Below, piece by piece: positions 29,807 to 53,572 of a stretch of 57,758 nt of DNA. Numbering within the stretch: the stretch's first letter is position 1; every line of letters starts with the position of its first letter. The stretch spans positions 1 through 57,758 of the forward strand of contig CAIWCR010000028.1 in the NCBI GenBank assembly GCA_903911245.1, read 5' to 3'. Source of the DNA: an uncultured Parcubacteria group bacterium. GTDB lineage: Bacteria; Patescibacteriota; Minisyncoccia; UBA6257; 2-01-FULL-56-20. Below the pieces are notes generated by a model, which saw only the letters and a program-made list of their open reading frames with translations, made no database searches and was not told the origin of the DNA. A program made the position numbers and the translations under genes.

Positions 29807-29813
29807 CCTTTTA

Positions 29814-35404: not shown

Positions 35405-36277
35405 TTATACGTCTTCTCGTATTCGATAGCTAAATGCTTCGGCGAGATGTTCTGCGGCTACTGTCTCTTTTTTATCGAGGTCTGCGATGGTGCGTGCCAC
35501 TTTAAGGATTCGATAATAACTTCGCGGGGAAAGCCACCCCTTTTCAAAATTTTCAAGAAATTTTTCAGCATCAGCCTCGAGGTTTATAAGCTGTTCCGTT
35601 TCGCGCGAACCCATTTCTGAGTTTGTTTCTATTTTTATGTTTTGACTATCAAATCGTTTACGTTGGGTTTCTCTTGTTGATGCCACCCTCTCTCTAATAG
35701 AAAGATTTACCGACTCAGGGCAGCCCCCTTTTCGCAGTTCGTCTATTTTGACGCCACCGACTTTTATCTGGATATCGATACGATCAAGAAGCGGTCCGGA
35801 AATTTTCTTTTGATATTTAATTACTTCATAGGCAGAGCACGTACATGGATGTTCGGAATTGCCATAATATCCGCATGGACATGGATTCATTGCCGCGATA
35901 AGTGTAAATTTTGCCGGAAACAGTAAACTGCGTTTTGTTCTTGCAACATGAACCATTCCTGATTCCATTGGTTGACGAAGTGCTTCCAGTGCGTTTTTTT
36001 GAAATTCGGGGAGCTCGTCAAGAAAAAGAATGCCACGATGAGAGAGGCTGATTTCTCCGGGCTTTGGATCTTGTCCTCCTCCAATGAGCGCTGCGACGGA
36101 TGTTGTCTGATGCGGCGATCTGAATGGGCGTCTGCGAATGAGACCGTGAGAGCCAAGGCCGGCAGCGCTCCATATTTTTGTAACCTCGATCGCTTCGTTT
36201 ATTGTAAGATCGGGCAAAATTCCACCAAGCGCCTGAGCAAGAAAACTTTTTCCTACACCGGGAGGTCCTATCATCAG
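35405..36277 (-). pseudogene. comM: comM/yifB 3' portion (290 codons from Walker A to stop), separated from its 5' portion by the inserted element
   Basis: Reads (L)MIGPPGVGKSFLAQALGGILP...ILFLDELPEF...LIAAMNPCPCGYYG...AEHLAEAFSYRIREDV*, the Mg-chelatase-like AAA+ ComM C-terminal two thirds. It has no native start codon or N-terminal domain. Confidence 0.9.
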
Positions 36278-36298
36278 GGCGTTGGGGTCGCTATTCAA
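36259..36298. other. attL junction (host half-site + AG + element half-site)
   Basis: CGGGAGGTCCTATCATC-AG-GGCGTTGGGGTCGCTATTCAA, with AG at 36276..36277. The element-side arm 36281..36298 is the inverted repeat of 52890..52907. Confidence 0.7.
36281..36298. repeat. Left terminal inverted repeat (attP half-site P')
   Basis: GTTGGGGTCGCTATTCAA. Its reverse complement TTGAATAGCGACCCCAAC matches 52890..52907 (TTAAATAGCGACCCCAAC) at 17/18. Confidence 0.85.
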
Positions 36299-36434
36299 CC
36301 ACCAATAAGGCGTATTCCCAATGTGGATAAGTTATTTGTCAGAAGAGTGTATACTTATAATAATCCCGCATGGGAGGGGGATGTCCCGTTAGGGCATCGC
36401 AAAAGAATCAGCGAAGGCTGGTTCTTTTGTTTTT

Positions 36435-37220
36435 CTATCCAATCAACTTTTTACCAAATCCCTTTACCGCACCTTCGGCCGAACACCGATATTTGCTTTG
36501 GATATTATCCACGACGGTTTTTAAAAAGTTTTCTCGCAACGCTGGAAATCTGCCATAAGATTGAAGAATGTCTAGTTTGGTCGCTAGAGTTAATAAATCT
36601 GCAAATTCCAATCCCGCTATCATTTTCTCCTTCCCTTTAATTTTTAGTTCTTTAGAAGTTAAGAATTTTTGAATGTTGTATGGATGACGATAATAAGTGC
36701 CGGACTCATAAAAGTTTTTATAGGCTTCTTTAAGAGCTAAATCTTCTCGTTCCCCCCTCGTTTCGGCAATAACATCTCCAATCGCATTGTTTTCTTCAAG
36801 GCAAAAGGTGTATCTCTCTAAGAGAATATTGAGACAATAATGATAAGGGTGATAAGCTGTCTGTTGATGTTTTTCTGCATGAGTTTTTTTATCCAATACA
36901 ATGGCGCATATTGTGTAATCTAAATCCTTAAACAAACTGATAAAGGATTTGTTAAACTCCCTTTTAACCTCATCGTTGTTCAACTTTGTAAATACTCCTC
37001 GCTGGTTTACTATATCGTCTCGGTGGAGAACGGGCAGCTCATCTGAGTCGTCGGCAATCAATCGCTTAATTTTTATCAAAGTAGGCTGCAGCATCTCAGC
37101 GTTTGTTTTCTCGCTGATAATAACCCCAGTCAGGCCGAGATATCTACGGGCAGGATCATCCGACAACGAATAATTATGCGTTCCCGATTCATCTATGTAG
37201 AGTCTAAATTTTTTTGGCAT
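36435..37220 (-). CDS. DUF3800-family protein
   Basis: 261 aa. N-terminal FRLYIDESGTH is the DUF3800 hallmark (IDESG). Confidence 0.7.
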   Translation of the reverse strand: MPKKFRLYIDESGTHNYSLSDDPARRYLGLTGVIISEKTNAEMLQPTLIKIKRLIADDSDELPVLHRDDIVNQRGVFTKLNNDEVKREFNKSFISLFKDLDYTICAIVLDKKTHAEKHQQTAYHPYHYCLNILLERYTFCLEENNAIGDVIAETRGEREDLALKEAYKNFYESGTYYRHPYNIQKFLTSKELKIKGKEKMIAGLEFADLLTLATKLDILQSYGRFPALRENFLKTVVDNIQSKYRCSAEGAVKGFGKKLIG

Positions 37221-37321
37221 TTCAGGATAGGCAAATTTGGGGTGGTAAATTCATTCTTATTAAGAATGAAAGACCAGCGCACAAGTTCACTGGTCTTTCG
37301 TGTTTGCAAAAAACTAACTCG

Positions 37322-37615
37322 CTACGCGCGACACTCTGGGAGTGTCAGCAGATTATCGCGCCTTGTGGAATCGGGAATCGTTCTTACGAATTTCTTTCCG
37401 CCACGCAGGAATGTTTCGAGGTATGCTTTTCGTCTTCCATCAGGAGTCTGAACATAAGCCACTCCACCACGGTCAATAAAGATGACCATCTGCAATAGAG
37501 TATACTTACCATTCAAGGACGTGGAATCCTCAATCCATCCAAACGAGGAAATTGCCTCGTGCGGATTTTCGTGATAACCATGATCCTTATTAATACACAC
37601 AATTCTTAATACCAT
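37322..37615 (-). CDS. DUF3892-domain protein
   Basis: 97 aa with IVCINKDHGYHENPHEAI...KFVRTIPDSTRRDNLLTLPEC. This matches the family pattern (CINKD ... PHE ... YLRT.PD...NNLL.LPEC). Confidence 0.65.
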   Translation of the reverse strand: MVLRIVCINKDHGYHENPHEAISSFGWIEDSTSLNGKYTLLQMVIFIDRGGVAYVQTPDGRRKAYLETFLRGGKKFVRTIPDSTRRDNLLTLPECRA

Positions 37616-37766
37616 TTTTTGGATTTGCGAATTAGCCCATACGAGTTATACTGATTATAGCCCGTATGGGTCGTGGGATATCGGGCGACCGATTAACGAT
37701 GGGACACCGATTTTTCCACTATTGTTTTTTTCAAGAGGTCTGGATTTACGTCCGGACCTTTTGAGT

Positions 37767-38135
37767 TCAAGTCTTTGCAATAAGTTTAATCACAAACAAC
37801 TTGCCAAAATTTGGATCCTCAATCTCCTCGGGAGAATATCTTCCCGCGTATTTTTGAGGATCAATAGAATATGAGGCGAGGAACGACCTCGCCGAAAAAT
37901 ATGCTCCCTTTTCGTCGGGGCGTTTTTTTAGTTTGAACATTCCCTCGCTTTCTTTTTCCACTAGCTTTATCCCTATTACTTGAGCTTCTTTATCAAAATA
38001 AAGCTCTACTCCCATATAATTGTCCAATTTATAGCGATGATGCATTCCAGAAGACAGCCCCAATCCCCCACTCCTGTTTATCGTCACTTGTGGCGTAAAT
38101 TTCCCTTTTTTCGCAATAAATTTCTCAAAATTCAT
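37767..38135 (-). CDS. Hypothetical protein
   Basis: 122 aa on the same strand as its neighbours, with no recognisable motif. Confidence 0.45.
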   Translation of the reverse strand: MNFEKFIAKKGKFTPQVTINRSGGLGLSSGMHHRYKLDNYMGVELYFDKEAQVIGIKLVEKESEGMFKLKKRPDEKGAYFSARSFLASYSIDPQKYAGRYSPEEIEDPNFGKLFVIKLIAKT

Positions 38136-38441
38136 ATATTTTTTAATATTATTTTTGTTTCGACTCCTATATTATAGATTAGTTTTTTATAAAATGCAAG
38201 CTCTAGTTTCTTTAAAAAACCGCGCATGACTCACTGGCGTACCCTATAATTGCGCCATTCTTATAACTATAACGTACAAATAAATCCAAACGTTACGTTC
38301 GGTTTTATAATTTAAAACGCTAAAAGTCTATTGAATGTCATGGTTTCAATTAGACAGCCTATTATCACCGCTTCATTCTTAATTTCCCTACTTTTGAAAA
38401 ATGTGGGAAGAATATTTTGAATGAGACGCGAAGTGATATTT

Positions 38442-38846
38442 TTATTGTCGTAGAAAAGAAATTATTTTTTCTAATGTCATCACATTCTTTCCCTGAAGTT
38501 GACGCTCCCATACCCTAAGAACGAGCCATCCTTGTCTTCTAAGTTCTGCGCGATTTCTCCTATCCCTATTGATATTGCTCTGTATTTTTATTCGCCAGAA
38601 TTTTGGGAGTCGATCACGGTGTCGGGAAAATTGATGACCATGCCAAAAATCGCTGGCAATAAAGATGGCACGTTTCCTTTTTGGTAGTGCGACATCAGGA
38701 CTCCCTGCTGCTTTCTTGTAATGTTTTTGAAAATATATTTTATTTGAACGCAGGGCTGAAAATACCAAATTTTCTATCTTGGTGTTTTTGGGACGGATAC
38801 GAGATATTATCTCGCTCCGCTTTTCTTTTGAAAATATGTCAGCCAT
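38442..38846 (-). CDS. vsr: Very-short-patch repair endonuclease (Vsr)
   Basis: MADIFSKEKRSEIISRIRPKNTKIE...GSPDVALPKRKRAIFIASDFWHGH...FWRIKIQSNINRDRRNRAELRRQGWLVLRVWE aligns by eye along the whole of E. coli Vsr. Confidence 0.88.
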   Translation of the reverse strand: MADIFSKEKRSEIISRIRPKNTKIENLVFSALRSNKIYFQKHYKKAAGSPDVALPKRKRAIFIASDFWHGHQFSRHRDRLPKFWRIKIQSNINRDRRNRAELRRQGWLVLRVWERQLQGKNVMTLEKIISFLRQ

Positions 38847-38862
38847 TTATAAATCAATCGCG

Positions 38863-39372
38863 CTAATAGCCCACAATCATAATCCCCGCCAGTGGTAAAT
38901 TCCACCTATCCGAGGCGTAAAGGGTGTTAAAGAAGTTTACAACCGCATTGAAATTGTCGTGACTGCGGTAGTCGTTTCTTACACAGATAATCAGATAATC
39001 AATGTCATGCATTACACATGCCTGAAACAAATCTTTGAGGAATTGATAATTTGTGACACCTCTTCCGGCCTCGACTTCGATGACGGTTTTTGAATTTTTA
39101 TTCCACCCGTCAGCATCGAAAGACTTTTCTATTCTGCCGTTTTGTCCGAACAAAACAGGGATACTTATTTTTTGATTTTTACTCTTACCGGATTCCACTT
39201 CAAATCCAATCTTTTCTAAGTCTTTTTTTAGAATCCCGAGTACGGTGTTGCTGTTGAATTTGTGCGCTGGCGAAGAAATTTTAGAATCATTCGGTACAAA
39301 GACGTCATCAATGATTTTCCTCAGGTGAATTGGCGCTTCTTTTGATTTTGGATAAAATTGCCATTTGGTCAT
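38863..39372 (-). CDS. PD-(D/E)XK restriction-endonuclease-like protein (BamHI-type D...E-x-E signature)
   Basis: FDADGW...TVIEVEAGRGVTNYQFLKDLFQACVMHDIDYLIICV. The start is set at ATG 39372 (MTKWQFY), 19 nt after the upstream stop. Confidence 0.5.
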   Translation of the reverse strand: MTKWQFYPKSKEAPIHLRKIIDDVFVPNDSKISSPAHKFNSNTVLGILKKDLEKIGFEVESGKSKNQKISIPVLFGQNGRIEKSFDADGWNKNSKTVIEVEAGRGVTNYQFLKDLFQACVMHDIDYLIICVRNDYRSHDNFNAVVNFFNTLYASDRWNLPLAGIMIVGY

Positions 39373-39391
39373 TGTAGAAAGATGGTGAAAT

Positions 39392-40006
39392 TTATAATAA
39401 AGGAACGATGCTCCCAACGTTTCTGCCATTTATTTTGTTTTTTACAACCTTGAACGAGGTAGGAGCTTCTAACCCGATAATCATCATCGGTACAGTGAGA
39501 ACATTATTGAGAGGAATCAGATATCGGCAAACTTTCTCGAATTCTCCGACAGCGCTATCAAATGCGCCGGCAATTTTCAGTTTTTTTGTAGTGCAAATCA
39601 CGACTCCAACCTCCGTCTGGACGGCTTTTTTGACATGGTTCATCTCGCTCGCTAGTACCGGCTTCAGCAAGTTCCATGCTATGGCTTCCCCGTGGTTAAA
39701 GGCGACCTCAATCGAAACCGAATCTTTTGCAAAATCAAGCCTCCATTTTTTTTCTTTCATGTATCCTTCTTGCTGGAATATTGGTGCTTCTTTTAGCCAG
39801 CCCTTTTCGATAAAGCGTTCCTTGAGAAGATCGTTTATGGCATACGAAAGACTCATCTTCTTTGAATATTTTGATTCGTGTCTCGTCTGGATGTCTGCAT
39901 CGGATATGCCCAAGATAACGTCGGTAAGCTCCTTATATATGGAAGCATAGCGCTCTTCGTTGAGGATTATGTCACCGTTCCTATGTGCTTTGGTTACAAA
40001 TTTCAT
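39392..40006 (-). CDS. BglII/BstYI-like restriction endonuclease family protein
   Basis: WRLDFAKDSVSIEVAFNHGEAIAWNLLKPVL resembles the BglII core (IDF.KD.V.IEVQFGKY.F..YDL). The third catalytic position is Ala here. Confidence 0.5.
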   Translation of the reverse strand: MKFVTKAHRNGDIILNEERYASIYKELTDVILGISDADIQTRHESKYSKKMSLSYAINDLLKERFIEKGWLKEAPIFQQEGYMKEKKWRLDFAKDSVSIEVAFNHGEAIAWNLLKPVLASEMNHVKKAVQTEVGVVICTTKKLKIAGAFDSAVGEFEKVCRYLIPLNNVLTVPMMIIGLEAPTSFKVVKNKINGRNVGSIVPLL

Positions 40007-40180
40007 GGGATAGAAATTAATGGATTAATATCTAAAGGATAGATCAAAACTAGCCGATAGTCGATCTGTCATGTTATTGTTTACCAGGTGTGGGTTTTAA
40101 AACCTGTGTATTACTCGATCTTGATCAAATAATGTCTTTGTGATAGGATTTCTATAAATGATTTTAATTTTATTAACACA

Positions 40181-41455
40181 ATGACTTCAAGGAATAAAGG
40201 GACGGATAAGGAGCTTCGGGTGGTAGAGCTTTTTGCAGGAGTCGGCGGGTTCCGGCTCGGGCTTTGCGGTACTGCTAAAAAACCATTCAAAGGATATAGG
40301 ATTGTTTGGGCAAATCAATGGGAGCCTTCTGGTCGCACCCAGCATGCTGCTATGGTTTATTCCGAGCGATTCCATAACGGGGCAAAACCCAACGAATATT
40401 TTAATGAGGATATAAACAAGGTTGTCGAGATTAAAAATTTTCCAGTTCCGGACCATGATTTATTGGTCGGCGGCTTCCCCTGTCAGGATTATTCAGTCGC
40501 CCGGACATTGAGTCATGCTGCGGGTATCGAAGGGAAAAAGGGTGTTCTCTGGTGGGCAATCCATAAGATTCTCCAAAGGAGGGCGCCTCAGTATGTCATG
40601 CTGGAAAACGTCGATCGCCTCTTAAAATCTCCGGCTTCCCAGCGAGGGAGGGACTTCGGTATCATACTAGCTTCCTTATCCGATCTCGGGTACGCCGTGG
40701 AATGGCGGGTTGTGAACGCTGCAGATTATGGAATGCCCCAACGCAGGAAAAGAACTTTTATTCTGGGCTATAAAAAAGGAACTTCTCTCTATAATAAACT
40801 GACCCATGCAAAACCACTGGACTGGCTAACCAAAGACGGCGTCGTCGCTGATGCGTTCCCAGTAAGGGATTTTGAAGTTGCTTTCATTCCTCGATTCATA
40901 GAGATAGAAGGAAGCCTCGATGAAGTTTCAAAAAAATTCAAATTCTCCTTTGAAAACTCCGGCCTTATGTTTGGACGGAAATTTATAACTACTAAAACGA
41001 CGCCTCATGATTATGAGACGACAACTCTCGGCTCAATTCTGCTTCCTATTGAAGCGGTTCCAAAAGAATTTTTTATCTCAAAAAGTGAACTGGCCCAATG
41101 GAAGCGTCTGAAAGGTAGTAAAAAAGAAATTCGTTCTTCGAAAAACGGCTTTACTTACACTTACGCCGAAGGATCAATGGCTTTTCCTGATTATCTCGAC
41201 CGACCGTCACGCACTATCGTGACGGGAGAAGGAGGCCCCTCACCTTCCCGCTTTAAGCATGTTATAAAACAAGGAATCCATTATCGAAGACTTGCTCCAA
41301 TTGAGCTTGAACGTCTTTGTATGTTTCCGGACAATCATACCTCCTATCCCGGGATAGGAGATGCAAAGCGTGCATTTTTTATGGGTAATGCCCTAGTTGT
41401 CGGCGTTATCGAAAGACTCGGCCAATCTCTTCTAAAAGCCAATAAAAATCTCTAG
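40181..41455 (+). CDS. dcm: DNA (cytosine-5)-methyltransferase
   Basis: Motif I ELFAGVGGFRLGL, motif IV GGFPCQDYS, motif VI MLENVDRL, motif VIII QRRKRTFILG, motif X GNALVVGV. Confidence 0.93.
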   Translation: MTSRNKGTDKELRVVELFAGVGGFRLGLCGTAKKPFKGYRIVWANQWEPSGRTQHAAMVYSERFHNGAKPNEYFNEDINKVVEIKNFPVPDHDLLVGGFPCQDYSVARTLSHAAGIEGKKGVLWWAIHKILQRRAPQYVMLENVDRLLKSPASQRGRDFGIILASLSDLGYAVEWRVVNAADYGMPQRRKRTFILGYKKGTSLYNKLTHAKPLDWLTKDGVVADAFPVRDFEVAFIPRFIEIEGSLDEVSKKFKFSFENSGLMFGRKFITTKTTPHDYETTTLGSILLPIEAVPKEFFISKSELAQWKRLKGSKKEIRSSKNGFTYTYAEGSMAFPDYLDRPSRTIVTGEGGPSPSRFKHVIKQGIHYRRLAPIELERLCMFPDNHTSYPGIGDAKRAFFMGNALVVGVIERLGQSLLKANKNL

Positions 41456-41702
41456 TGCTCTATCTATTAGTTTATTAATTTGTTCTGCAATGCCAAAGAA
41501 CTTTTAGTTTTAATATGGATAAGGCAAAGCCTTTGCCCATAGCCCATAGAAAGCCGGCTCCACACTATAAAAACCACGCCTAGACCAAAATTTGTGGCTT
41601 AATCACCATTCAAAAACGAGCATAAGTTCTAAATTTGTAATATTCAACCAAGGGGACTTTCCATATTTCCGAAAAAGAGTTTTAGTTAGCTCTAATCGAA
41701 AT

Positions 41703-41849
41703 ATGAAAAAAGATAATAATAAATTTGCAAAACTCTGCCGAAAAATAATCGAGCATCTTAACCATTGTGAGGTATTCGAGAAAGAAGAAGAGGAAATGAT
41801 GAAATTAGCAAAAGAGCTTCTGATTGTCACATCAAAACAAATAGATTGA
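41703..41849 (+). CDS. Small hypothetical protein (48 aa)
   Basis: The ATG at 41703 gives MKKDNNKFAKLCRKIIEHLNHCEVFEKEEEEMMKLAKELLIVTSKQID, followed by the hairpin repeat. No homology was recognised. Confidence 0.3.
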   Translation: MKKDNNKFAKLCRKIIEHLNHCEVFEKEEEEMMKLAKELLIVTSKQID

Positions 41850-41858
41850 GAATTTTCA

Positions 41859-41899
41859 GTTTTTCGGTTTTTCTTTCCCTAGGGAAGCGGAAAACCGAA
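41859..41899 (+). repeat. Hairpin element copy A (terminator-like), related to 51021..51065
   Basis: TTTTCGGTTTT...TTCCCTAGGGAA...AAAACCGAAAA, with an 11-bp outer and a 5-bp inner stem. It lies 10 nt after a plus-strand stop codon. Confidence 0.6.
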
Positions 41900-41931
41900 A
41901 AGCTAGTATCTATCGGATTTCCGTTTTTACC

Positions 41932-42180
41932 TTACTGTTCCCTATCCCCTCCTTCCTTTCTCATGAGATATATCATCCATGCGTAATCAAGTGGAATATA
42001 CTCAATAATATATCCGTTTTCGCACTTTGCTGAACATTCTTCAACGATTTCTAGGACATCGTGTTGCTCGTCCATTGTTAGCTTCTTACCTATATGCTTC
42101 TCGAGTTCGATAATCAAATGGTCCAACATTGCCATCTCTTCTTGTACGGCCGTCTTCTTTTGCAGTTTGAAGAACATCAT
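41932..42180 (-). CDS. Hypothetical protein (82 aa)
   Basis: Last ORF of the XRE-ImmA-SppA minus-strand block. No motif was recognised. Confidence 0.4.
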   Translation of the reverse strand: MMFFKLQKKTAVQEEMAMLDHLIIELEKHIGKKLTMDEQHDVLEIVEECSAKCENGYIIEYIPLDYAWMIYLMRKEGGDREQ

Positions 42181-42254
42181 CCAAGATGTATTTGGGAAGC
42201 ATGTCTTTAAGTTTGATTTTCTTTTGTCGTTTATTCATAAGGCTTTGTTACAAA

Positions 42255-43070
42255 TTACTGGCACAACGTAACATCTTCCCCTATTTTTCCCTTGAGATAA
42301 TTTTGAACGTCATAAATATTTCCGATTTTATCAATCAGCTTGTTTTGTAGTGCCATCTTACCGAGCATCGAAGAACCATCAGCAATTGTGGTTACGCTTG
42401 CCACGGAGAGATTGCGATTCCGTGCTACGGAACTGATGAAGTTCTGCATCATGATATTAAGATCTCGCTGAAATAATGCCTTTTCTTCTGTTGTAAGCGG
42501 GGTATCTGGATTCCCGGCATCTTTATACTTCCCGGCAGTAAGTGAAACGAACGTCTGACCATTTTGTTCATTTTGTTTAACATTATCAAGATATGATTGC
42601 GTAACTCCGATATCAACGAGGGTTGAATTTGCGGACGCAAAGATCGTTTCTGCGCCTGTTGCAGCCCAATAGGCTGCTGATGTGCCCATGTCTCCCACAA
42701 GAGCTACGGTTGGCTTGTTGGCATGTTTCAATGCGGTTGCAATATCTTCTCCAGCCACCGGGTTTCCGCCAAATGAATCAATGTGCAAAACAATGGCTTT
42801 GATATTTGGATCAGCATCCGCCATCTCAATCTGCTGGCGTATATCTTCGGAGGCTGTCTGATTGAGCGTGTTTGATGCGTCGTTGCCGTTTTCATTCGGA
42901 TAATAGACGACCGAACCGTAAAGCTGTACCACTGCTACATTGCAACTTTTTGGTTGCTGGTTCCAATATTCAGAAAGACTAATGACGCCACCAATAAGAA
43001 TGGCGAGGGCGACTAGTCCAAGAACCGTAACCATCAAAGATTCTTTTGTTGATTGAAGATTGAATTTCAT
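42255..43070 (-). CDS. sppA: Signal peptide peptidase SppA-type (S49) serine protease, membrane anchored
   Basis: N-terminal TM helix, IKAIVLHIDSFGGNPVAGEDI, and GDMGTSAAYWAATGAETIFAS (catalytic Ser context). Confidence 0.8.
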   Translation of the reverse strand: MKFNLQSTKESLMVTVLGLVALAILIGGVISLSEYWNQQPKSCNVAVVQLYGSVVYYPNENGNDASNTLNQTASEDIRQQIEMADADPNIKAIVLHIDSFGGNPVAGEDIATALKHANKPTVALVGDMGTSAAYWAATGAETIFASANSTLVDIGVTQSYLDNVKQNEQNGQTFVSLTAGKYKDAGNPDTPLTTEEKALFQRDLNIMMQNFISSVARNRNLSVASVTTIADGSSMLGKMALQNKLIDKIGNIYDVQNYLKGKIGEDVTLCQ

Positions 43071-43098
43071 ATTTTAAGGGATAATGAATTTAAGTTTT

Positions 43099-43608: not shown

Positions 43609-43960
43609 GATTTTTGAAAAGATCTTTTGCCCACATTACTGCCTTCTCATCTTCCTTGGCTATTGATTGTAAATCGATTTTACTGAGGGAAAAACCACGA
43701 GGAATTATTGGAAAGAAGTTTTCTGTTTTACATCCGAGGAGGCAGGCAAGTTTCCATAAAAGTACCGCGTTGACGTTATTTCTGCCCGTTTCGATTTGTG
43801 TCAGTGCTTCACGGGTCATGCCCAACTCTGCCGCCACTCGTGCTGCGCTATGATTCTGTTTCTTTCGTATCTCCTGAACCTTTCTTCCGATTCCCTTTTT
43901 TATTTCGGAATCGGGTGATGTCCACTCCTTATTTATTGTACCCTTCTTTTTTGTTTTCAT
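43601..43960 (-). CDS. XRE-family helix-turn-helix transcriptional regulator
   Basis: IGRKVQEIRKKQNHSAARVAAELGMTREALTQIETGRNNVNAVLLWKLACLLG. The start is set at ATG 43960. Confidence 0.85.
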   Translation of the reverse strand: MKTKKKGTINKEWTSPDSEIKKGIGRKVQEIRKKQNHSAARVAAELGMTREALTQIETGRNNVNAVLLWKLACLLGCKTENFFPIIPRGFSLSKIDLQSIAKEDEKAVMWAKDLFKNHG

Positions 43961-45354: not shown

Positions 45355-45408
45355 TGTTTTGTTTTGTTAATTATTAAAGAGTCGAAACAAAAATAATCAA
45401 TATCGATC

Positions 45409-46320
45409 ATGAGAGAACCCATTATCAGCGATCAAGATTTTATAAGGCGTCTTTCGGAAGAAGAAAGAAAGCACGCAGGGTTTATTTCGACAAAAGAGAT
45501 TTTCCCTTTGGTTTGCGAACATGCGGCGCTTTTGGAGAGCGGTATAAAACCTGTCGGCGCCATCCCGACGGGTTTTATAAAACTGGACAAAGCGCTCATC
45601 GGATTGAAAAAAGCGGATCTTATCGTTGTCGGCGCAGAACCTTGCGTAGGAAAGACTGCCTTTGTTCTTAGTCTTGCGGAGAATATGGCGCATAAGGGGA
45701 TGAAGGTTGGAATCTTTTCTCTCGACACGTTAAGAGAAAAAATAATGCAGCGGTTAATAGCGATTCGAACATCAATTCCATTATGGCGCATCGTCACTGG
45801 TCGGTTAAATAAGGGCGACATGAAGCGTATTGAGCAATGCGCCGAGAGTTTCAAGAAGTTACCATTATATATCGACGACGAGACAGATCTTGATGTTTTG
45901 GAACTACGTTCAAGAGCGACTGAACTTAGGGATAAAGATGGATTGGATTTTTTGATAGTGGATTGTTTTCAGTTTATCCGTTCATTTGATAATGAACCCC
46001 ATAATCTAAACAGGGTCGCTTGTGGTCTCAAAATGATTGCCGTTGAATTGAATATCTCCATTGTTATTACTTTGAATATGGAACGAAAGCAATCCGATCA
46101 TCACTTTCCGAATTTTCACGACATCCGCCAATGGTCACTGGATCGATATGCGGATGTTGTATTAATGCTTCGTCAAAGTAATCAATTTGAGGTCGATGGA
46201 TCCATACGACCGATTGACATCTTTGTTTTAAAGAATAAAAATGGTCCAACAGGGATGGTTGAGCTTGGTTTTGATTACGAGTTGGCGAGTTTCATCGACG
46301 CGGTAGAATCAAAGAAATAA
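45409..46320 (+). CDS. DnaB-family helicase C-terminal (RecA-like) domain protein lacking the N-terminal domain
   Basis: GAIPTGFIKLDKALIGLKKADLIVVGAEPCVGKTAFVLSLAENMA (Walker A), LDFLIVDCFQFI (Walker B), VLKNKNGPTGMVELGF. It aligns by eye with DnaB residues ~180-470. Confidence 0.8.
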   Translation: MREPIISDQDFIRRLSEEERKHAGFISTKEIFPLVCEHAALLESGIKPVGAIPTGFIKLDKALIGLKKADLIVVGAEPCVGKTAFVLSLAENMAHKGMKVGIFSLDTLREKIMQRLIAIRTSIPLWRIVTGRLNKGDMKRIEQCAESFKKLPLYIDDETDLDVLELRSRATELRDKDGLDFLIVDCFQFIRSFDNEPHNLNRVACGLKMIAVELNISIVITLNMERKQSDHHFPNFHDIRQWSLDRYADVVLMLRQSNQFEVDGSIRPIDIFVLKNKNGPTGMVELGFDYELASFIDAVESKK

Positions 46321-46330
46321 CATAATTAAT

Positions 46331-47089
46331 ATGTCTCAATACTATAAGCCACAAAAAACAAGAAATCTTTTTGATCCAAAGTCAAAAGAGCCTTTTGTGG
46401 TAAGCCGAAGCGGAATCGATCTCTTTATACAATGTCCGCGATGCTTTTATCTCGACAAGAGGCTTGGCACCGCACGACCACCGGGATTCCCCTTCAGTTT
46501 GAATTCTGCCGTAGACGCTCTTCTCAAAAAAGAATTTGACATGCATCGAGCTAAGGGATCGACCCATCCGCTTATGGAAGAATATGGTATTGATGCCGTA
46601 CCTCTCGCAGATGAGAGACTTGATGAGTGGCGTGATTCATTAAGGAATGGGATAAAATATTTTCATGAACCAACGAATCTTATAATTCGTGGCGGTATTG
46701 ATGACGTATGGACAAGGCCAAACGGAGAATTGTATATCGTGGATTATAAAGCAACGTCAAAAAACGAAGAGGTTAACCTTGATGCCGAATGGCAAGATGG
46801 CTACAAACGACAAATGGAAGTGTATCAGTGGCTTTTCCGAAAAAATGGATTCAAGGTGTCAAATACGGGATATTTCGTTTATTGCAATGGAGATACCGAT
46901 AAAGAAGCGTTTGATGCCAAGCTCGAATTTGATATCAAAGTTATTCCTTATGAAGGCAATGATGAATGGATCGATGGCGTCATAACGGATTTGCACAAAT
47001 GTTTAATGGAAAAGAGTGTTCCGCGAGCGAAAGATTCCTGTGATTATTGTGCTTATTTCGAACGCCGGGCGTATCATGAGAAAAAATAA
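46331..47089 (+). CDS. Cas4/RecB-like PD-(D/E)XK nuclease with 4-Cys cluster
   Basis: N-terminal CPRCFYL, core GGIDDVW...LYIVDYKAT, C-terminal CDYCAY. This is the Cas4/AddB-type arrangement of one N-terminal and three C-terminal cysteines (the third Cys is not unambiguously placed). Confidence 0.65.
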   Translation: MSQYYKPQKTRNLFDPKSKEPFVVSRSGIDLFIQCPRCFYLDKRLGTARPPGFPFSLNSAVDALLKKEFDMHRAKGSTHPLMEEYGIDAVPLADERLDEWRDSLRNGIKYFHEPTNLIIRGGIDDVWTRPNGELYIVDYKATSKNEEVNLDAEWQDGYKRQMEVYQWLFRKNGFKVSNTGYFVYCNGDTDKEAFDAKLEFDIKVIPYEGNDEWIDGVITDLHKCLMEKSVPRAKDSCDYCAYFERRAYHEKK

Positions 47090-47109
47090 AAAATTTAATT
47101 AATTTAAAA

Positions 47110-47736
47110 ATGTCGAACAAATATTTTTTACAACTTGAAAAAGAATTCGGAAAATATGGTAGCTGGGCTTTGTGGGATAAGGACGGTAAAATTGAGCCAT
47201 TTGTTCAAATAAAAAATTCCGTACGTTTCATAAAAGATTCTATTAATCCGAATATTGTTTTTATGGGATTAAATGCTAGTCGTGATTTAAAAAAAGAAAT
47301 CGATTGGGCAAATTATCACTCAGATTTGAAACCTAAAAAGGGACGAACATGGAAGAAGGCTTCTTGTCGCAGGTTAGCAGAAATTATCCAACAGAAAGAG
47401 TTTTTTCCGTTTCGGGGTGCATATATGACCGATATTATTAAAACCAGATACGATTCGACAAGTGGAAAACTCAAAATATTTCTTAAGACTCATAAAAGCA
47501 TTCTTAACAAGAATAAAAAACTACTTGAAAGAGAGATGAAAATGCTTCAGAAAATTTCTGGTTCAAATAAATTTGTAATTATCTGCATTGGTGATGATAG
47601 TTTTGAAATTACTAAACAAATATTGGGAACGAATGAGAATTTATATAAAATTCCACATTATGCGATGCGTGGAATTGATGATGAAATAAGAGAAAAAATA
47701 CAACAAGGGCTAATAAAAATAATTAAGAAGCTATGA
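47110..47736 (+). CDS. Uracil-DNA-glycosylase-superfamily-like protein (tentative)
   Basis: The motif order is reminiscent of the UDG fold: IVFMGLNAS (motif A-like), GAYMTDIIK, FVIICIGDD, IPHYAMRG (motif B His). The call is weak. Confidence 0.35.
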   Translation: MSNKYFLQLEKEFGKYGSWALWDKDGKIEPFVQIKNSVRFIKDSINPNIVFMGLNASRDLKKEIDWANYHSDLKPKKGRTWKKASCRRLAEIIQQKEFFPFRGAYMTDIIKTRYDSTSGKLKIFLKTHKSILNKNKKLLEREMKMLQKISGSNKFVIICIGDDSFEITKQILGTNENLYKIPHYAMRGIDDEIREKIQQGLIKIIKKL

Positions 47737-47916
47737 TTCTGTTTCCGCGAACTCTTTTGGATTCATCCTGCGATATCTGATTTTGTTCTCGATTAAATGG
47801 ATGATACATCCGTCATTACTACAATTCGAGCTAGGGCATTTTGCGCAAGTCGGAACGAGGCATGAATATCTTTTTATGTTTTCTTCCCCCAAGTTTATCA
47901 AGCGACATCATTGTCT

Positions 47917-48183
47917 TTATTGGTTATTTCTATCTTCATTTATTGAATTCTGCTTAGATTGTACGGGCTTAATTCCTGCGCTCCATTTCCATACTTTCAC
48001 AGCCAACCAAGCCCCCGCAAGACCTCCTGTGATTTCTCCGATGGAAATTATTGCCTGCATTGTTTCTGCTGAGGAGTTCTCAAACATGAGACCGAGACAC
48101 AAGACAACACTAACGGTAATTATTTTCCCGGCTACGACAAAAGTAATAAGACCACCGATCAAACCAATTATTTTTTTCACCAT
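47917..48183 (-). CDS. Small membrane protein (88 aa, 2-3 TM helices)
   Basis: Hydrophobic segments IIGLIGGLITFVVAGKIITVSVVLCLGLM and ISIGEITGGLAGAWLAV. It lies downstream of the nuclease-like gene on the same strand. Confidence 0.5.
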   Translation of the reverse strand: MVKKIIGLIGGLITFVVAGKIITVSVVLCLGLMFENSSAETMQAIISIGEITGGLAGAWLAVKVWKWSAGIKPVQSKQNSINEDRNNQ

Positions 48184-48272
48184 TTATTTTTCTATTTTTA
48201 ATTTTTCCGACCTTTACCACCGCATCGAGCTAATTAAAAATCGGTTTTGTAAAAAAGAAAACAAATCTGTCG

Positions 48273-48803
48273 TTATATGTGGTTTTCGTTCGTTTTCTCT
48301 CGGAGTATCTTTTGTGCCATAGCCATTGGGTCTTTACTAAAAACTATATCCCAGCGGTTTTTTAACTTTTTCAATTCTGGCAGTTCCTTCTCGAGCCAAA
48401 AAACTCTTTTGCCTTTTTCTATCGTCTGTTTGGACTTCTTTGATCGTTTAAGAAATTTCTTATACTCATTCTCCACTTTCTGATTCAATAGGTTTTTAGG
48501 AATTATGTAATATTCAATATGCTGATTTTCAGGAATGGAATGGACGGCTACAAATATATAAAATGACCTACCCCATTCTTTCTTTACTTGGAGAGGCCTG
48601 CTGCCCATCTGCCAACTATTCTCAGTTAATTCAACGGTTCTTGTTTTAACTTGTATATCAACGGAGTCATATTCATTGCTTGCAACGATATCCACTCCTG
48701 CGGTGTTTCTCAGGGTAACAGCAGCAATGAAGCCTCGCCGTGAAAGCTCCCCTGCTACAAAATATTCCCCTGCTATTCCTGAAAAAATTTGTTTCGTTTT
48801 CAT
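48273..48803 (-). CDS. PD-(D/E)XK nuclease-fold protein (DUF4365-like N-terminal domain)
   Basis: GIAGEYFVAGELSRRGFIAAVTLRNTAGVDIVASNEYDSVDIQVKT has the G.GE...L...G / D-I-V / QVK pattern. The start is set at ATG 48803. Confidence 0.5.
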   Translation of the reverse strand: MKTKQIFSGIAGEYFVAGELSRRGFIAAVTLRNTAGVDIVASNEYDSVDIQVKTRTVELTENSWQMGSRPLQVKKEWGRSFYIFVAVHSIPENQHIEYYIIPKNLLNQKVENEYKKFLKRSKKSKQTIEKGKRVFWLEKELPELKKLKNRWDIVFSKDPMAMAQKILREKTNENHI

Positions 48804-49111
48804 TGGATACAAAAAACCCATCACGTGAGCGATGACTCCGAAGAGTCACCCATAGCCCTTTCGAGCTATGACCTGTTGAAGATGCTCCCACATGATGGGG
48901 TCTTTTTCTTCAACAGGATTTTTGCCATGCCAAACGGTTGTTTGGTTTAGGCAATGCTATTCAGTTGTAATTTTAGAATATCACGATTATAGAAAATTCG
49001 GAATGCTCCGTCCAAGGCTTTTGAAAAAAACAAAAAGCAAACAAAATACAAATATTTGACTCATGAAAACGATTATTTTTTTATATCGATTTTTTCCACA
49101 AGCTCTTTCTC

Positions 49112-49139
49112 TTGACTAGCGAATCTAGTGCGATATACT
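49112..49139 (+). promoter_or_regulatory. Sigma-70-like promoter inside the element's 0.9-kb non-coding region
   Basis: TTGACT (49112..49117), 16-nt spacer, TATACT (49134..49139). Confidence 0.5.
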
Positions 49140-49288
49140 ACCGAAGTAGGTGGCTCTTGAGAAAAAAGAAAAGAGCAGATCCATTGAAAAGTCCAGACCT
49201 TGGGCGAGGACGTTGCGGGTAGCGAATCATCCGGTGAACTCCTAATATACTTGGAGAGTAGAGCCATGATTGTGAGGATGAGGAGTTA

Positions 49289-49371
49289 GGGCTGCAAACT
49301 AAAAAGCGAGTACATAATCAAATCAACAGGTCGTTGTTTGTGTATTCACTTTTCGGTTTGCGGCCCTTTTT
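49289..49371 (+). terminator. Long imperfect hairpin plus T5 (terminator/attenuator or 3' end of a ~230-nt RNA)
   Basis: GGGCTGCAAAC (49289..49299) pairs with GTTTGCGGCCC (49356..49366). The stem continues inward (AAAAGCGAGTACA / TGTATTCACTTTT). It is followed by TTTTT. The G-U pairs exist only on the plus strand. Confidence 0.5.
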
Positions 49372-49601
49372 GATAAATATCTCCAGAGCACCGCTCTAAA
49401 TTGAAAGAGCAGAGCTCTCAAAAACTTAAAAGCATTATAGCTTCTCGGTTCCCTACCCTTACGGACAAGGAATCGAACAAGCTGTTTTTTGACCTGAACG
49501 AACTCAGTGATTTTTTGGTACGCCTATTTATTAAGCATCAGAAAGGAAGGGGTCCTCCCGAATGAGATGCAAATGGGCTGAAATAAATAAATTTTTAAAT
49601 A

Positions 49602-49754
49602 ATGCAAAAGAAACAAAAAAGACGGGCGAACAAAAAAGCCCGAAAAGAGGTTAAGGATTCTTTAAAGAGTGAGTACGAGATGGTCGGTGAGGTAGTCGAA
49701 CAAGATAAACATATTTTGAATGCGATGAGCATTCTACTAACAGAAAATGAATAA
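49602..49754 (+). CDS. Small basic protein (50 aa), possible accessory/DNA-binding factor
   Basis: The ATG at 49602 gives MQKKQKRRANKKARKEVKDSLKSEYEMVGEVVEQDKHILNAMSILLTENE. Its stop overlaps the start of the next gene by 8 nt. No SD is visible. Confidence 0.3.
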   Translation: MQKKQKRRANKKARKEVKDSLKSEYEMVGEVVEQDKHILNAMSILLTENE

Positions 49755-51018
49755 AATAGAAATATTAAATATATTAAATCGCGACAAGATTCTCCGTGGC
49801 GAATCTGCGGGAGACGTGGCAATCCAATGTCCGTTTTGTAGGGCTGTCACAGCGACAGGAGAAAAATATCTCACGATGATTATCAATTCTGATACTGTTA
49901 GAAGCTACTGCGGAGAGTGTCGCAAATCAGTTAGTTTTGATGAGCTTCTTGAGGTTCTGGAAATAAAAACGAGTCCTACGTTATCGAAATCGGAAGCAGG
50001 GTTGCAATTATCAAAGACGGAGCTGTCCATCGGGACGGAAGAATATGAAAGTAACCGATTCGTGCCGGAGAACCATCGGAACCTTGTCGCATCCGGCATT
50101 ATGGAAATCGAATGGCTTGTCGAGAATATCGTGGCAGTCGAAGGCTATACATTAATTTCCGGTGCCCAGCAGTCAGGGAAAAGTCTAATTGCCCTCCTGC
50201 TTGCGAATACGGTAACCACGGGCAATCCCCTTTTTGGAAAATTTGTAGCAAAAAAGGGAAGGGTTCTTTTTGTCGACGAGGAAAACGGAAGGACGAGGCT
50301 GGCTGCACGTACAAACCTCCTCGGGATTCCGGCTGAATGCGAGATAGAATATCTGATTAATAAGAGCATTATGGTCGACTCCCTGAAAGATCTTACAAGA
50401 CTGGTGGCTCTTTGTCAGAAGAAAAAATATTCTCTTATCATCTTTGACTCGCTGGTTAGATTCTTCAGAGGCAATGAGAATGAGGCTGGTGTCATGTCTG
50501 AAGTGAATCGATGCTTTAATGCTCTTAGGGCTACCGGCGCAGCTATTGTGGCGCTTGCTCATAACAAGAAATCGGGATTTGACGGAGCTTCTGAATTAGG
50601 AAGTATGGTTCGCGGCTCATCGGAGATTGTTGCCGCTCCCGACTGTCATATCGCCCTTAAGAAGATAAAGAATGTCATCGAGGTTCGTCAGCCGAAATTC
50701 CGCGATGGCGATCCATTCCACCCTTTCAAGCTGAATATTATTGGGGATAAGACGTTTATCAAAATTACTTATGATGGACAGTTAGATGAGGAGAAATCAA
50801 AGAAAGAAGAAACGGCAGATGCAGTCGTCAGTCTTTTACAGGAAGGTGAATTGCCGAGAGATGTCATCGTCGAAAAATTGAAGGATATTGCAGGAGAAGG
50901 CGTTATTGGAAAAGTTCTCACCGAACTTCTTAAGACAAAAGCGATACAGCGCCGGAGTGGAGATAATAATAAGCATTTCTATTCGCTGATGGAAGAATCC
51001 GCGGACGAACAGGTGTAG
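49747..51018 (+). CDS. RepA/AAA_25-type RecA-like ATPase with N-terminal zinc ribbon and C-terminal winged-helix-like tail (element replication protein)
   Basis: CPFC...CGEC zinc ribbon, Walker A ISGAQQSGKSLIAL, Walker B-like RVLFVDEENG and LIIFDSLVRF. 423 aa. Confidence 0.65.
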   Translation: MNKIEILNILNRDKILRGESAGDVAIQCPFCRAVTATGEKYLTMIINSDTVRSYCGECRKSVSFDELLEVLEIKTSPTLSKSEAGLQLSKTELSIGTEEYESNRFVPENHRNLVASGIMEIEWLVENIVAVEGYTLISGAQQSGKSLIALLLANTVTTGNPLFGKFVAKKGRVLFVDEENGRTRLAARTNLLGIPAECEIEYLINKSIMVDSLKDLTRLVALCQKKKYSLIIFDSLVRFFRGNENEAGVMSEVNRCFNALRATGAAIVALAHNKKSGFDGASELGSMVRGSSEIVAAPDCHIALKKIKNVIEVRQPKFRDGDPFHPFKLNIIGDKTFIKITYDGQLDEEKSKKEETADAVVSLLQEGELPRDVIVEKLKDIAGEGVIGKVLTELLKTKAIQRRSGDNNKHFYSLMEESADEQV

Positions 51019-51020
51019 TT

Positions 51021-51065
51021 TTTTGGTTCTTCCTTCCTTAGGGAAAGAAAAAACCGAAAAACCAG
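51021..51065 (+). repeat. Hairpin element copy B, related to 41859..41899
   Basis: TTTTTGGTTCTTCCTTCCTTAGGGAAAGAAAAAACCGAAAAAC is 34/43 identical to copy A in the same orientation. It also lies directly after a plus-strand stop codon. Confidence 0.6.
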
Positions 51066-51145
51066 AAATCCCACACAAAATCGGAAATTATTTTGTTTTC
51101 CAAAGAACTAGAGGTTTAATTAGGGCATAAATAAAAATTAAGTCA

Positions 51146-52780
51146 ATGGAGCGTACCGCATTACAAATTGCAAAAGAAGTCATAACGGAGAGCTATATTA
51201 AAAGCTGCTATTATGCGCGCGTCTCCAGTGACGAGCAAAAAGAGAATGAGACCATTGAAAGCCAGAAGAATGAAATAAAGAAAGTTATTGCTGAAAATGG
51301 AGAGAAGTTGGTTCGGGAATATATTGACGATGGCGTCTCTGGGGCGTTATCGCACAGGCCGGCATTGGACCGGCTTCGTGATGATGCGAAGCTCGGAGTA
51401 TTTAATAAGGTTTATATCCTCTCCCCCGATCGTCTCTCTCGAGAATTATTTTTACAACTTGTGGTCGTAAAAGAATTACAGGCCTATCGCATCGAAATTG
51501 TTTTTCTAAGTCAAAAATTTGGAACAAGCTCAAGTGATAAGCTCTTATTTCAGATGCTTGGAGCGGTTTCCGAATTCGAGCGGGCGCAGATTTTGGAACG
51601 TACGAGGAGGGGGCGCAGATATAAGGCAGAGATTCGGCAGGAGTTTGTCGGATATCAGCCACCTTACGGATATAGCTATACAAGGAAAGAAAAAAGTTCC
51701 GATGGTCGGGGAAGTATTGAGATAGACGACAATGAGGCGAAGATCGTCAAGATGATGTTCCAATGGGTAAGCGAAGGAATGTCAGCAAGGAATGTAGTGA
51801 AGCAACTGACAGCGATGAGGGTTCCCACGAGGAGAGGAGGAGCAACATGGCGGAACAGTTCCGTCTTTAGGATTCTAAAGAGGTCTGAATATCTAGGTAC
51901 GTTTTACTACAATCGTGTGGAATGTATAGAGACTGCAAATCATCGCACGGAGGAAAAATATCGTACAAGTTCCAAGACGGGGAGGGCGTTACGACCGAAG
52001 AATGAATGGATAACGATACCTCTCCCCCATCTCCGACTTATCTCCGACAGCCTTTTTTGTTCCGTACAAGAACAGCTCAAAAAGAACATCGCGTTCTGTA
52101 AGCGCAATGCAAAAATGGATTATCTGCTTTCTGGCGCAATGATGAAGTGCCAGAAATGCGGAAGTTCGTATTTCGGAAATACCATGCACAGCAAGCCGTT
52201 TTATTCGGACAGTAATAAGAGGAATAAATTTCCTCTTATAAGAGACTGCGATGCTCCTTCTGTTTCTGCTCCGCGTATTGAGATTCTTGTATGGGACACT
52301 ATCGTTGAGCTTCTCAATAATCCAGATCTTTTCAAAAAATACTTAAAAGAGACAGTCGTTACTAATGCTGAAAAACCACAGGAGCTGACCATCCTGGAGA
52401 ATCAATTAAAAAATCTCCAGACGGAGGAGGACAGAATCATACATGGCTATCAGAAAGGACTTATAACTGATGAAGTAAAGATTAAGAGCATTATCCAGAA
52501 AATCAAAGAGGATAAAAAATTAACCTCCGAAAATATTGCGAGGATTAATGGACGAGCTGGGAAGAAAAAGAAATCTCAATTGCCCAAGAGCTTGAAGGGT
52601 GTTTGTCGGATGGTGCGGAGGCGACTAAAACAACTGGACTTTGAAGGTAGGCGGCAGCTTATCCGAGAATTGGTCAAAGAGATTTTGTTCGACGGAAAGA
52701 AAGTCGTAATACGAGGATATCTCCCCTCTCCTACGGGAAACTTAACAAGGACGGAGTTTGAGATCGGCAAAAAGATTTAA
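51146..52780 (+). CDS. Large serine recombinase (integrase)
   Basis: The resolvase domain has the catalytic Ser context YYARVSSDEQ. A recombinase domain, a zinc ribbon (CQKCGSSYFG) and a coiled-coil region follow. 544 aa. It ends 130 bp from attR. Confidence 0.92.
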   Translation: MERTALQIAKEVITESYIKSCYYARVSSDEQKENETIESQKNEIKKVIAENGEKLVREYIDDGVSGALSHRPALDRLRDDAKLGVFNKVYILSPDRLSRELFLQLVVVKELQAYRIEIVFLSQKFGTSSSDKLLFQMLGAVSEFERAQILERTRRGRRYKAEIRQEFVGYQPPYGYSYTRKEKSSDGRGSIEIDDNEAKIVKMMFQWVSEGMSARNVVKQLTAMRVPTRRGGATWRNSSVFRILKRSEYLGTFYYNRVECIETANHRTEEKYRTSSKTGRALRPKNEWITIPLPHLRLISDSLFCSVQEQLKKNIAFCKRNAKMDYLLSGAMMKCQKCGSSYFGNTMHSKPFYSDSNKRNKFPLIRDCDAPSVSAPRIEILVWDTIVELLNNPDLFKKYLKETVVTNAEKPQELTILENQLKNLQTEEDRIIHGYQKGLITDEVKIKSIIQKIKEDKKLTSENIARINGRAGKKKKSQLPKSLKGVCRMVRRRLKQLDFEGRRQLIRELVKEILFDGKKVVIRGYLPSPTGNLTRTEFEIGKKI

Positions 52781-52889
52781 TTTTTTAAAATTACAAAATT
52801 TTATTCCAGTGCTATTAGTTAGGCATGGCATTATCTGACGAGACAGTGCAAGAAATACACAAGAAATCCAAAAAGCGGAGCAGTTGAAG

Positions 52890-52930
52890 TTAAATAGCGA
52901 CCCCAACATTAGAACGTTATGACCACCGGA
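52890..52930. other. attR junction (element half-site + AG + host half-site)
   Basis: TTAAATAGCGACCCCAACATT-AG-AACGTTATGACCACCGGA, with AG at 52911..52912. Confidence 0.7.
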
Positions 52931-53572
52931 CGCAGCAATAGTAAGCGCGCGTTTTGCATTTTCTTGACCTTTGATTTCAGAAAAGTCCGGCGTTGTATTT
53001 TTCACTATCCCCTCTTCCTCGAATACTTTTGGTATTATATTTTTCTTTTCCTCCAAAAACGCGATGGCATCACCAAGATTTTCCAAAGGAATTATTTTTA
53101 TATTTTTTACGACCGCTGCCTCATTTGCATTTTTTGCCGGAAGAAAAATATATTTAAAATGTAATCCTGCTGCCATTTGTGCAGCGCTCAATGCTCCACT
53201 TATTGGACGAAGTCGTCCATCAAGTGCGAGCTCCCCTAAAAATATTTTATCGCGTGTTTCAAATTCATTTATTTGTTTTGTCGCAAGAAGATATCCGACG
53301 GCAATTGCGAGATCATACTGCGATCCCGCTTTTTTCACATCGGCCGGAGCGAGGTTGATAGTAATTTTTCTATTCTCTCTATTTGGTGGTTTTATGTTGG
53401 AATTTTTAAGTGCAGAATTTACTCGTTCCTTCGCCTCGTTAAGAGCCTTGTCGGCGAGACCAACAATATTAAAAGCATGGAGACCAATATTGAGATCGGC
53501 TTCGACTTCAATGAGTCGAGCATCAATCCCTTCGAGTTCTGCGGAATATACTCGCGCAAGATTTTGTATCAT
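52913..53572 (-). pseudogene. comM: comM/yifB 5' portion (220 native codons); the ORF then runs 56 codons into element DNA (to 52742)
   Basis: MIQNLARVYSAELEGIDARLIEVEADL...DLAIAVGYLLA...LGELALDGRLRPISG (Lon-protease-like ChlI N-domain) ...DFSEIKGQENAKRALTIAASGGHNV, then the non-homologous tail LMLGSLFNFNCS... Confidence 0.9.

Follow-up and report, generated by a model that had tools for sequence, protein, structure and literature searches.

Organization of the comM locus

The DNA analyzed here, a stretch of 57,758 nt from an uncultured Parcubacteria group bacterium (contig CAIWCR010000028.1; hereafter the window, in whose positions all coordinates are given), carries the gene comM (yifB) in two pieces on either side of an element of 16,635 bp (36278-52912) that encodes its own large serine recombinase (LSR). 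Read on the minus strand, the translation of the N-terminal half (53572-52913) ends in ...AASGGHNV (...KRALTIAASGGHNV), and its open reading frame (ORF) runs on for 56 codons inside the element, as far as 52742. The translation of the C-terminal half (36277-35405, minus strand) begins LMIGPPGVGKS... (LMIGPPGVGKSFLAQ...) and continues to the stop codon. Joining the two halves in frame yields a protein of 510 aa. The initial annotation of this DNA had reported a comM gene split at its Walker A motif into halves that rejoin in this way, and both the translations and the join proved to be as it described them.

The rejoined protein belongs to the YifB/ComM family, scoring 557 bits against NCBIfam model TIGR00368 (cutoff 362.4; model positions 1-499 of 499). 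All three Pfam families that the initial annotation had named for a profile check were matched, ChlI at 23-148, Mg_chelatase at 196-398 and Mg_chelatase_C, and the Mg_chelatase match (model positions 1-204 of 207) is one unbroken stretch over the junction at aa 220. In a search of 5.8 billion proteins, the closest relatives were intact 510-aa proteins with 77-80% identity at 100% coverage, and no intact comM allele more than 80% identical to the rejoined protein was present among them. The source of these relatives names them as YifB/ComM of Liptonbacteria, Paceibacterota and Parcubacteria, names that belong to the Patescibacteria group and agree with the candidate phyla radiation (CPR) host that had been suspected. 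The 289-aa ATG-start form of the C-terminal half has a recorded match in another assembly; a look-up of its 297-aa TTG-start form gave no record.

An intact comM, for which the initial annotation had suggested a comparison with related genomes, is found in the 510-aa orthologs and in the colinear locus L001 (GCA_009712145.1), which reads GGHNILMIGPPGVGKS at the site. Comparison by tblastx aligns L001 10001-10672 with window 53572-52901 and L001 10655-11539 with window 36283-35399, and the flanks are also colinear, with UPF0102 upstream and UvrD, KsgA and two large proteins downstream. Because a single match extends over the join and the flanks are colinear, the two comM fragments are, judged from the sequence, halves of one gene rather than paralogs, and the intervening 16,635 bp are an insertion. 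The halves are free of stop codons and frameshifts and, when compared with 60 intact orthologs, deviate at none of 150 invariant columns, a count to be read against an average of 0.73 deviations, and a maximum of 4, in those orthologs themselves. In other bacteria, ComM is a helicase with a role in the integration of transforming DNA (PMC11472951). The protein is presumably inactive while the island is integrated, because the beta1 strand and P-loop of its AAA+ domain are severed from the N-terminal domain.

Junctions, att sites and recombinase

The position of the crossover is ambiguous by an AG dinucleotide common to both junctions (36276-36277 and 52911-52912), which is the sole block that they share at the crossover; there are no long direct repeats. 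Within the element, 36281-36295 is a perfect inverted repeat of 52893-52907, and the reconstructed attP, which includes ...AATAGCGACCCCAACATTAGGGCGTTGGGGTCGCTATT..., contains perfect inverted repeats of 15 bp that lie symmetrically, at equal distance, on either side of the AG. The reconstructed attB, which includes ...GGAGGTCCTATCATCAGAACGTTATGACCACCGG..., is only weakly or partly symmetric (GGNGGTC...). The sites are short, have imperfect dyad symmetry and share a 2-bp core between attB and attP, and such an arrangement is the standard layout of LSR sites. The attB and attP strings put forward in the initial annotation are exactly those that the sequence yields, here refined by the AG ambiguity. 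The crossover falls on the CT of codon Leu221, just ahead of the Walker A motif, and joining the flanks in silico indicates that excision at the att core would rebuild the comM ORF exactly.

The element is self-contained and ends in an intact LSR gene, as had been noted. The protein matches the Resolvase (PF00239, 7.5e-33), Recombinase (PF07508, 1.9e-21) and Zn_ribbon_recom (PF13408, 2.5e-07) families and holds all 38 columns that are invariant in an alignment of 27 homologs, including Y23, R25, S27, R71, D95 and R96, with S27 lying within the motif YARVSSDEQ. Its domains and conserved catalytic residues are those of an LSR, and it is the only recombinase in the element. Among the small element ORFs, no HTH_17/Xis-like or other credible match to a recombination directionality factor (RDF) was found in Pfam at E<=0.1, although RDFs are too diverse to be excluded by homology. 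An HTH_17 gene lies just upstream of the LSR gene in the relatives L006, L007 and L171, and none lies there in the window. In one relative, represented by L006 and L007, the LSR ORF has no stop codon before the junction and continues in frame into the C-terminal half of comM (L006 1940-4438; L007 777-3275), giving a predicted LSR-ComM fusion of 832 aa (P0204). As a consequence of this read-through, the C-terminus of the recombinase would differ between the integrated and the excised state.

The junctions recur in other assemblies, with exact copies of the 56-nt attR junction in contigs L004 and L005 and of the 56-nt attL junction in L175-L178. These 56-mers are thus identical in six independent contigs from the assemblies of at least five other samples, and record ERZ1426629 has the same gene order at the locus. 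It is exceedingly improbable that the arrangement is an artifact, whether an assembly chimera or two fragments of comM paralogs, because attL and attR recur at 100% identity in independent assemblies. In addition, the Mg_chelatase and TIGR00368 matches run continuously over the join, and both sides are colinear with the intact relative L001. No support for an artifact was found beyond the fact that other assemblies do break inside the element: the contigs of other samples with identical junctions all end there, at 50434, 36754, 36976 or 37202, with three contigs starting exactly at 50434 and two at 36754. Position 50434 is, however, spanned both by contig L174 and by the AAA_25 domain of an element protein, which suggests that the breaks reflect low or uneven coverage, or coexisting cargo variants behind identical ends, rather than chimerism. 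Two of the refutations that the initial annotation had foreseen, by paralogy and by chimerism, failed, the first on the end-to-end alignment of the rejoined protein and the second on the reproduced junctions.

Gene content and classification of the element

The features of the locus are collected in Table 1. A protein with an AAA_25 domain, related to RepA and primase-helicases, is likely the replication initiator of the element; its gene also adjoins the LSR gene in L006 and L191. An XRE protein and an ImmA protein form an ImmR/ImmA-like regulatory pair that is divergent from the replication genes. The cargo includes a type II restriction-modification system, consisting of a methyltransferase and a restriction endonuclease, together with a Vsr endonuclease. 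The G+C content of the island (0.400) does not set it apart from its flanks (0.422 and 0.400).

Table 1. Features of the split comM gene and of the element between its halves
Feature	Coordinates	Strand	Remarks
comM (yifB) C-terminal half, aa 221-510	35405-36277	-	Walker A GPPGVGKS to stop; AAA+ domain and Mg_chelatase_C
attL	36255-36295		B arm ...GGAGGTCCTATCATC; core AG (36276-36277); P' arm GGCGTTGGGGTCGCTATT (36278-36295)
DUF3800	36435-37220	-	
DUF3892	37322-37615	-	
ORF without assigned function, 122 aa	37767-38135	-	
Vsr mismatch endonuclease	38442-38846	-	
ORF without assigned function, 188 aa	38863-39429	-	
BglII-like restriction endonuclease	39392-40006	-	
C5 cytosine methyltransferase	40181-41455	+	2e-161 against PADLOC type II model
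Hairpin, second copy	41858-41906		80% identical to first copy; between methyltransferase and S49 operon
SppA-like S49 peptidase	42255-43070	-	membrane-anchored
ImmA/IrrE M78 peptidase	43099-43608	-	
XRE-type helix-turn-helix protein	43601-43999	-	
M16 peptidase	44101-45354	+	
DnaB_C helicase	45409-46320	+	
PD-(D/E)XK Cas4-like exonuclease	46331-47089	+	
ORF without assigned function, 208 aa	47110-47736	+	
ORF without assigned function, 183 aa	48273-48824	-	
LOOT RNA (Rfam RF03000)	48831-48953	-	full length, then terminator-like hairpin
AAA_25 (RepA/primase-helicase-like) ATPase	49747-51018	+	N-terminal Cys4 motif
Hairpin, 49 nt	51017-51065		between AAA_25 and LSR genes
Large serine recombinase, 544 aa	51146-52780	+	Resolvase, Recombinase and Zn_ribbon_recom domains
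attR	52893-52935		P arm AATAGCGACCCCAACATT (52893-52910); core AG (52911-52912); B' arm AACGTTATGACCACCGG...
comM (yifB) N-terminal half, aa 1-220	52913-53572	-	Lon-like ChlI domain ending ...GGHNV

Three familiar classes of element were considered and rejected. A complete prophage is contradicted by searches with Pfam and PHROGs, which covered 19 of the 20 ORFs in the element that are 100 aa or longer and revealed no major capsid protein, portal, terminase or tail protein. The sole match to a head maturation protease is the S49 protein, which scores better as SppA (144 bits vs 30 bits) and has an N-terminal transmembrane helix. An integrative and conjugative element was rejected because Pfam and related searches found no relaxase, coupling protein or type IV secretion system (T4SS) between 36278 and 52912, and an AbaR-type, Tn7-like island because the element has no matches to the transposase families TniA, TniB and TniC. 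With an LSR, a replication module and defense cargo, and no genes for virions or transfer, the element is thus most aptly described as an LSR-driven integrative island. Our interpretation of the locus, to which we assign a probability of roughly 0.8, is that a 16.6-kb integrative island was put into comM of a Parcubacteria-type CPR bacterium by its own LSR.

The two hairpins of the island fold with -25.8 kcal/mol (z -4.9; the copy at 41858) and -17.4 kcal/mol (z -2.2; the copy at 51017). From these predicted structures, the pair may represent terminators, possibly bidirectional ones, or a shared operator.

LOOT RNA

The island also carries a LOOT RNA, which was identified with the Rfam covariance model at 85 bits (gathering threshold 46.4) over model positions 1-121 of 121. 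The main text of the paper that reported the discovery of this motif is silent on LOOT (PMC5737381). Two further copies were found in LSR elements that abut comM, at L020 6268-6383 (minus strand) and L221 879-1007 (minus strand), although the positions in comM of these elements differ (aa ~32 and aa ~318, respectively). LOOT is thus found in 3 of ~16 comM-linked elements, and a model built from two copies gave no match in the remaining fetched LSR loci. The copies of the window, L020 and L221 differ by substitutions in paired stems. Because the ORFs downstream of LOOT are not homologous among the three elements, no conserved pairing of LOOT with a protein emerges from them.

Other elements in comM

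Insertion at this site is not confined to the window. In about 10 other elements, whose LSRs are 34-48% identical, the break in comM falls at the same Walker A codons (aa 217-224), and the comM fragments directly abut the 3' end of the LSR gene (L008/L009/L179; L170/L171 from Pacebacteria; L010 and L014 from Omnitrophota; L185; L190; L191; L196; and L006/L007). These junctions share their crossover register, the first two bases of the Leu221 codon, which are usually CT, as well as a P-arm consensus of roughly ATGWTKGGGWCGCWAT. Overall, comM abuts the 3' end of the LSR gene in 21 of the 166 loci of LSR relatives that have enough downstream sequence, some of which are redundant. Other LSRs meet comM at different positions. 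At aa ~347-357 it is hit in two Clostridium genomes, two Chloroflexi genomes and two IMG/VR contigs (L069, L078, L079, L085, L118 and L159; Clostridium sp. LY3-2, C. tepidiprofundi, Dehalococcoidales, Chloroflexia and IMG/VR), and in L079 both comM halves are visible, ~11 kb apart. The gene is cut at aa ~318 in L221/L222 and at aa ~32, at the conserved IVGLPD motif, in the Nealsonbacteria genome L020.

The LSRs that use the Walker A site do not form one clade: in a distance-based neighbor-joining tree, drawn without support values, they are scattered in a 47-member subtree together with 26 LSRs that have no adjacent comM. The backbone of the element is likewise not conserved among comM-inserted relatives, in which AAA_25 recurs weakly (L191, L006) and the other cargo is unrelated. 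Because unrelated cargo is found at a shared site, what these elements have in common is an LSR/att module, and they do not constitute one element family.

In the Pacebacteria locus L170, genes for Laminin_G/GDSL, Wzi-like, NTP-transferase, GHMP kinase and epimerase proteins lie at 418-9117, within 10 kb upstream of the LSR gene that abuts comM. If these surface-glycan genes lie inside the element, its cargo would serve cell-surface modification rather than restriction-modification.

Relation to known systems

The closest annotated phage LSRs to that of the window are the recombinases of Wolbachia WO (WOVitA2, 32% identity over 92%, E 3e-64). Integration into the magnesium chelatase gene of Wolbachia is reported for most recombinases of the sr1WO group, with portions of this gene lying on both flanks, and WOVitA2 is among the sr1WO genome maps (PMC9203015). 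The sr1WO prophages and the window island are alike in that an LSR insertion splits a Mg-chelatase-type gene and in that the LSR gene is placed at the very end of the element. However, the sr1WO elements are complete tailed prophages that bear modules for head, tail and eukaryotic association, whereas the window element has no virion genes, and they reside in an alphaproteobacterial endosymbiont, not in a CPR bacterium. The targets are likened by the name 'magnesium chelatase', not by sequence or codon position; the WO records in GenBank and IMG/VR end 99 nt past the LSR gene and contain no recognizable comM fragment.

LSR elements that split genes are also known from Listeria, in which A118/phi10403S resides in comK, and from Bacillus subtilis, in which SPbeta (recombinase SprA) resides in spsM and skin (SpoIVCA) in sigK. 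Like the window island, these elements have an LSR, are inserted in coding sequence and restore the interrupted gene exactly and in frame on excision, and comK, like comM, is a competence-related target. The window element differs in not being a phage and in its target gene and phylum; moreover, in the comK, spsM and sigK systems experiments have demonstrated excision, what triggers it and the RDF, whereas for the window island excision is predicted from sequence. The integrase of A118 is a serine recombinase (PMC3556126).

In Acinetobacter, mobile elements that often bear defense cargo are well known to insert into comM, which the initial annotation had likewise described as a recurrent island target, and loss of comM lowers transformation with heterologous DNA, for which an anti-curing rationale has been proposed (PMC11472951). 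The AbaR/AbGRI islands in comM of A. baumannii share with the window island a target gene of the same family and the frequent presence of defense cargo. They move by Tn7-like transposition (TniABC), unlike the LSR-borne window island, and Acinetobacter records in a phage collection split comM near aa 283-288 of the query, compared with 220/221 here. Elements of the ICEBs1 type resemble the island in having an XRE repressor and an ImmA/IrrE metallopeptidase side by side and next to replication genes, but they use a tyrosine rather than a serine recombinase, and the window element lacks their relaxase, coupling protein and T4SS.

The initial annotation was aware of no such arrangement in this kind of organism. 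In its narrow sense this stands, as a literature search retrieved no paper describing LSR elements in comM of CPR bacteria; in a wider sense it does not, given the published LSR element in a 'magnesium chelatase' gene (PMC9203015) and the ~10 elements at the same site. The locus is a known kind of gene-splitting insertion, and what is new is this LSR island in a CPR comM.

Host surroundings

The pilB gene and the T4SS-like genes that had been noted in the same window are indeed there, as a PilB-like T2SSE protein (7899-9581) and as VirB4-like and PrgI proteins (23273-26241). The latter belong to a host operon on the minus strand (21211-32135) that includes a PrgI-like gene (25753-26241), a VirB4/TraG-P-loop gene (23273-25009) and genes for large proteins of 773, 735 and 421 aa without family matches except a weak PKD match. 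This operon is partly colinear with L001, and it is therefore a conserved T4SS-like cluster of the host and not part of the island. The dnaA gene (1463-2809) lies ~33 kb from the comM locus, so that the island is located not far from the probable origin of replication. A single tRNA gene, tRNA-Leu(CAG) at 15167-15251, is present in the window.

Discussion

We propose that the attP of the element recombined with an attB in the codons that immediately precede the Walker A motif of comM, in a reaction that would have been catalyzed by the element's own LSR. The site was presumably chosen as a highly conserved segment of DNA within a dispensable gene. By analogy with other bacteria, the resulting knock-out of ComM may shield the island from deletion via transformation-mediated recombination. 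No decay is seen in the LSR, the att arms or comM, and the island has an ImmR/ImmA-type switch; it therefore probably retains the capacity to excise, and its excision would then regenerate a functional comM.

Several observations weigh against this proposal. This copy is only presumptively mobile, and the identical element has been observed in a single host background. Neither an attB nor an attP form was found in the assemblies, the protein database or IMG/VR, all of which hold assembled sequences in which low-frequency excision would escape notice: every assembly with this locus (at least five) has the integrated state, none of the 269 fetched loci contains the exact attB or attP string, and the degenerate attP pattern GCGACCCCAA-N(6-10)-TTGGGGTCGC gave 0 matches in IMG/VR. 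By homology, the element has no recognizable RDF. The absence of decay in comM would fit a very recent insertion just as well. Assemblies of other samples resolve the interior of the element poorly, and its gene content may vary within the population. Finally, the anti-curing rationale, to the extent that it applies here, is borrowed from Acinetobacter and Legionella, not from CPR bacteria.

Some of these observations would be expected of an island that integrated once and is now fixed in the lineage, with a recently inactivated comM that is heading to decay. We consider such immobilization unlikely. It would account for an integrated state that is uniform across samples, for the lack of a recognized RDF and for the absence of transfer and virion genes, but not readily for an LSR that is full length with all family-invariant residues, for att inverted repeats that are perfect over 15 bp, or for comM halves without a stop codon, a frameshift or a deviation at invariant columns.

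At the other extreme, the island could act as a programmed, reversible switch resembling 'active lysogeny', in which excision, for example by ImmA-mediated derepression, restores ComM and is followed by reintegration or terminal loss. Both outcomes have parallels: the Listeria comK prophage reintegrates, and the skin element of sigK and SPbeta of spsM are lost terminally. The exact restoration of the comM ORF upon excision would suit such a role, as would the intact LSR, att arms and comM halves (0 of 150 deviations at invariant positions), the XRE/ImmA pair that faces the replication genes, and the PilB-like and T4SS-like genes of the host. Nevertheless, a programmed switch appears improbable to us, since at least five assemblies show only the integrated form, the protein database holds no intact allele, IMG/VR holds no attP and no RDF candidate was recognized. 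Furthermore, the heterogeneous cargo among elements at this site suggests that attB is used generically by mobile elements and is not part of a host-integrated regulatory circuit. None of the data presented here speak for excision as a programmed host switch.

A still broader view would hold that LSR islands in ultra-small, DNA-scavenging lineages (CPR, Omnitrophota) have specialized on comM, using at least 3-4 att positions, that they serve as reversible, ImmR/ImmA-controlled gates on ComM-dependent recombination, and that the LOOT RNA functions in the control or replication of the element. We regard this view as speculative and its truth as quite doubtful.

Descriptions of mobile elements in CPR bacteria are scant, and the integrative island in comM provides a fully delimited case, with exact att sites, an intact recombinase and defense cargo. 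LSR elements of CPR bacteria and Omnitrophota have a common landing site in the part of comM that codes for the Walker A motif, and the LSRs found there are related to the integrases of Wolbachia phage WO. The orphan LOOT RNA gains a concrete genomic context, namely LSR islands inserted in comM. Together with the reconstructed attP and attB, the LSR of the window is a candidate integration tool for organisms that have almost no genetics. If excision of the island is regulated, it would constitute a switch of competence and recombination in cells that are thought to rely on the uptake of DNA.

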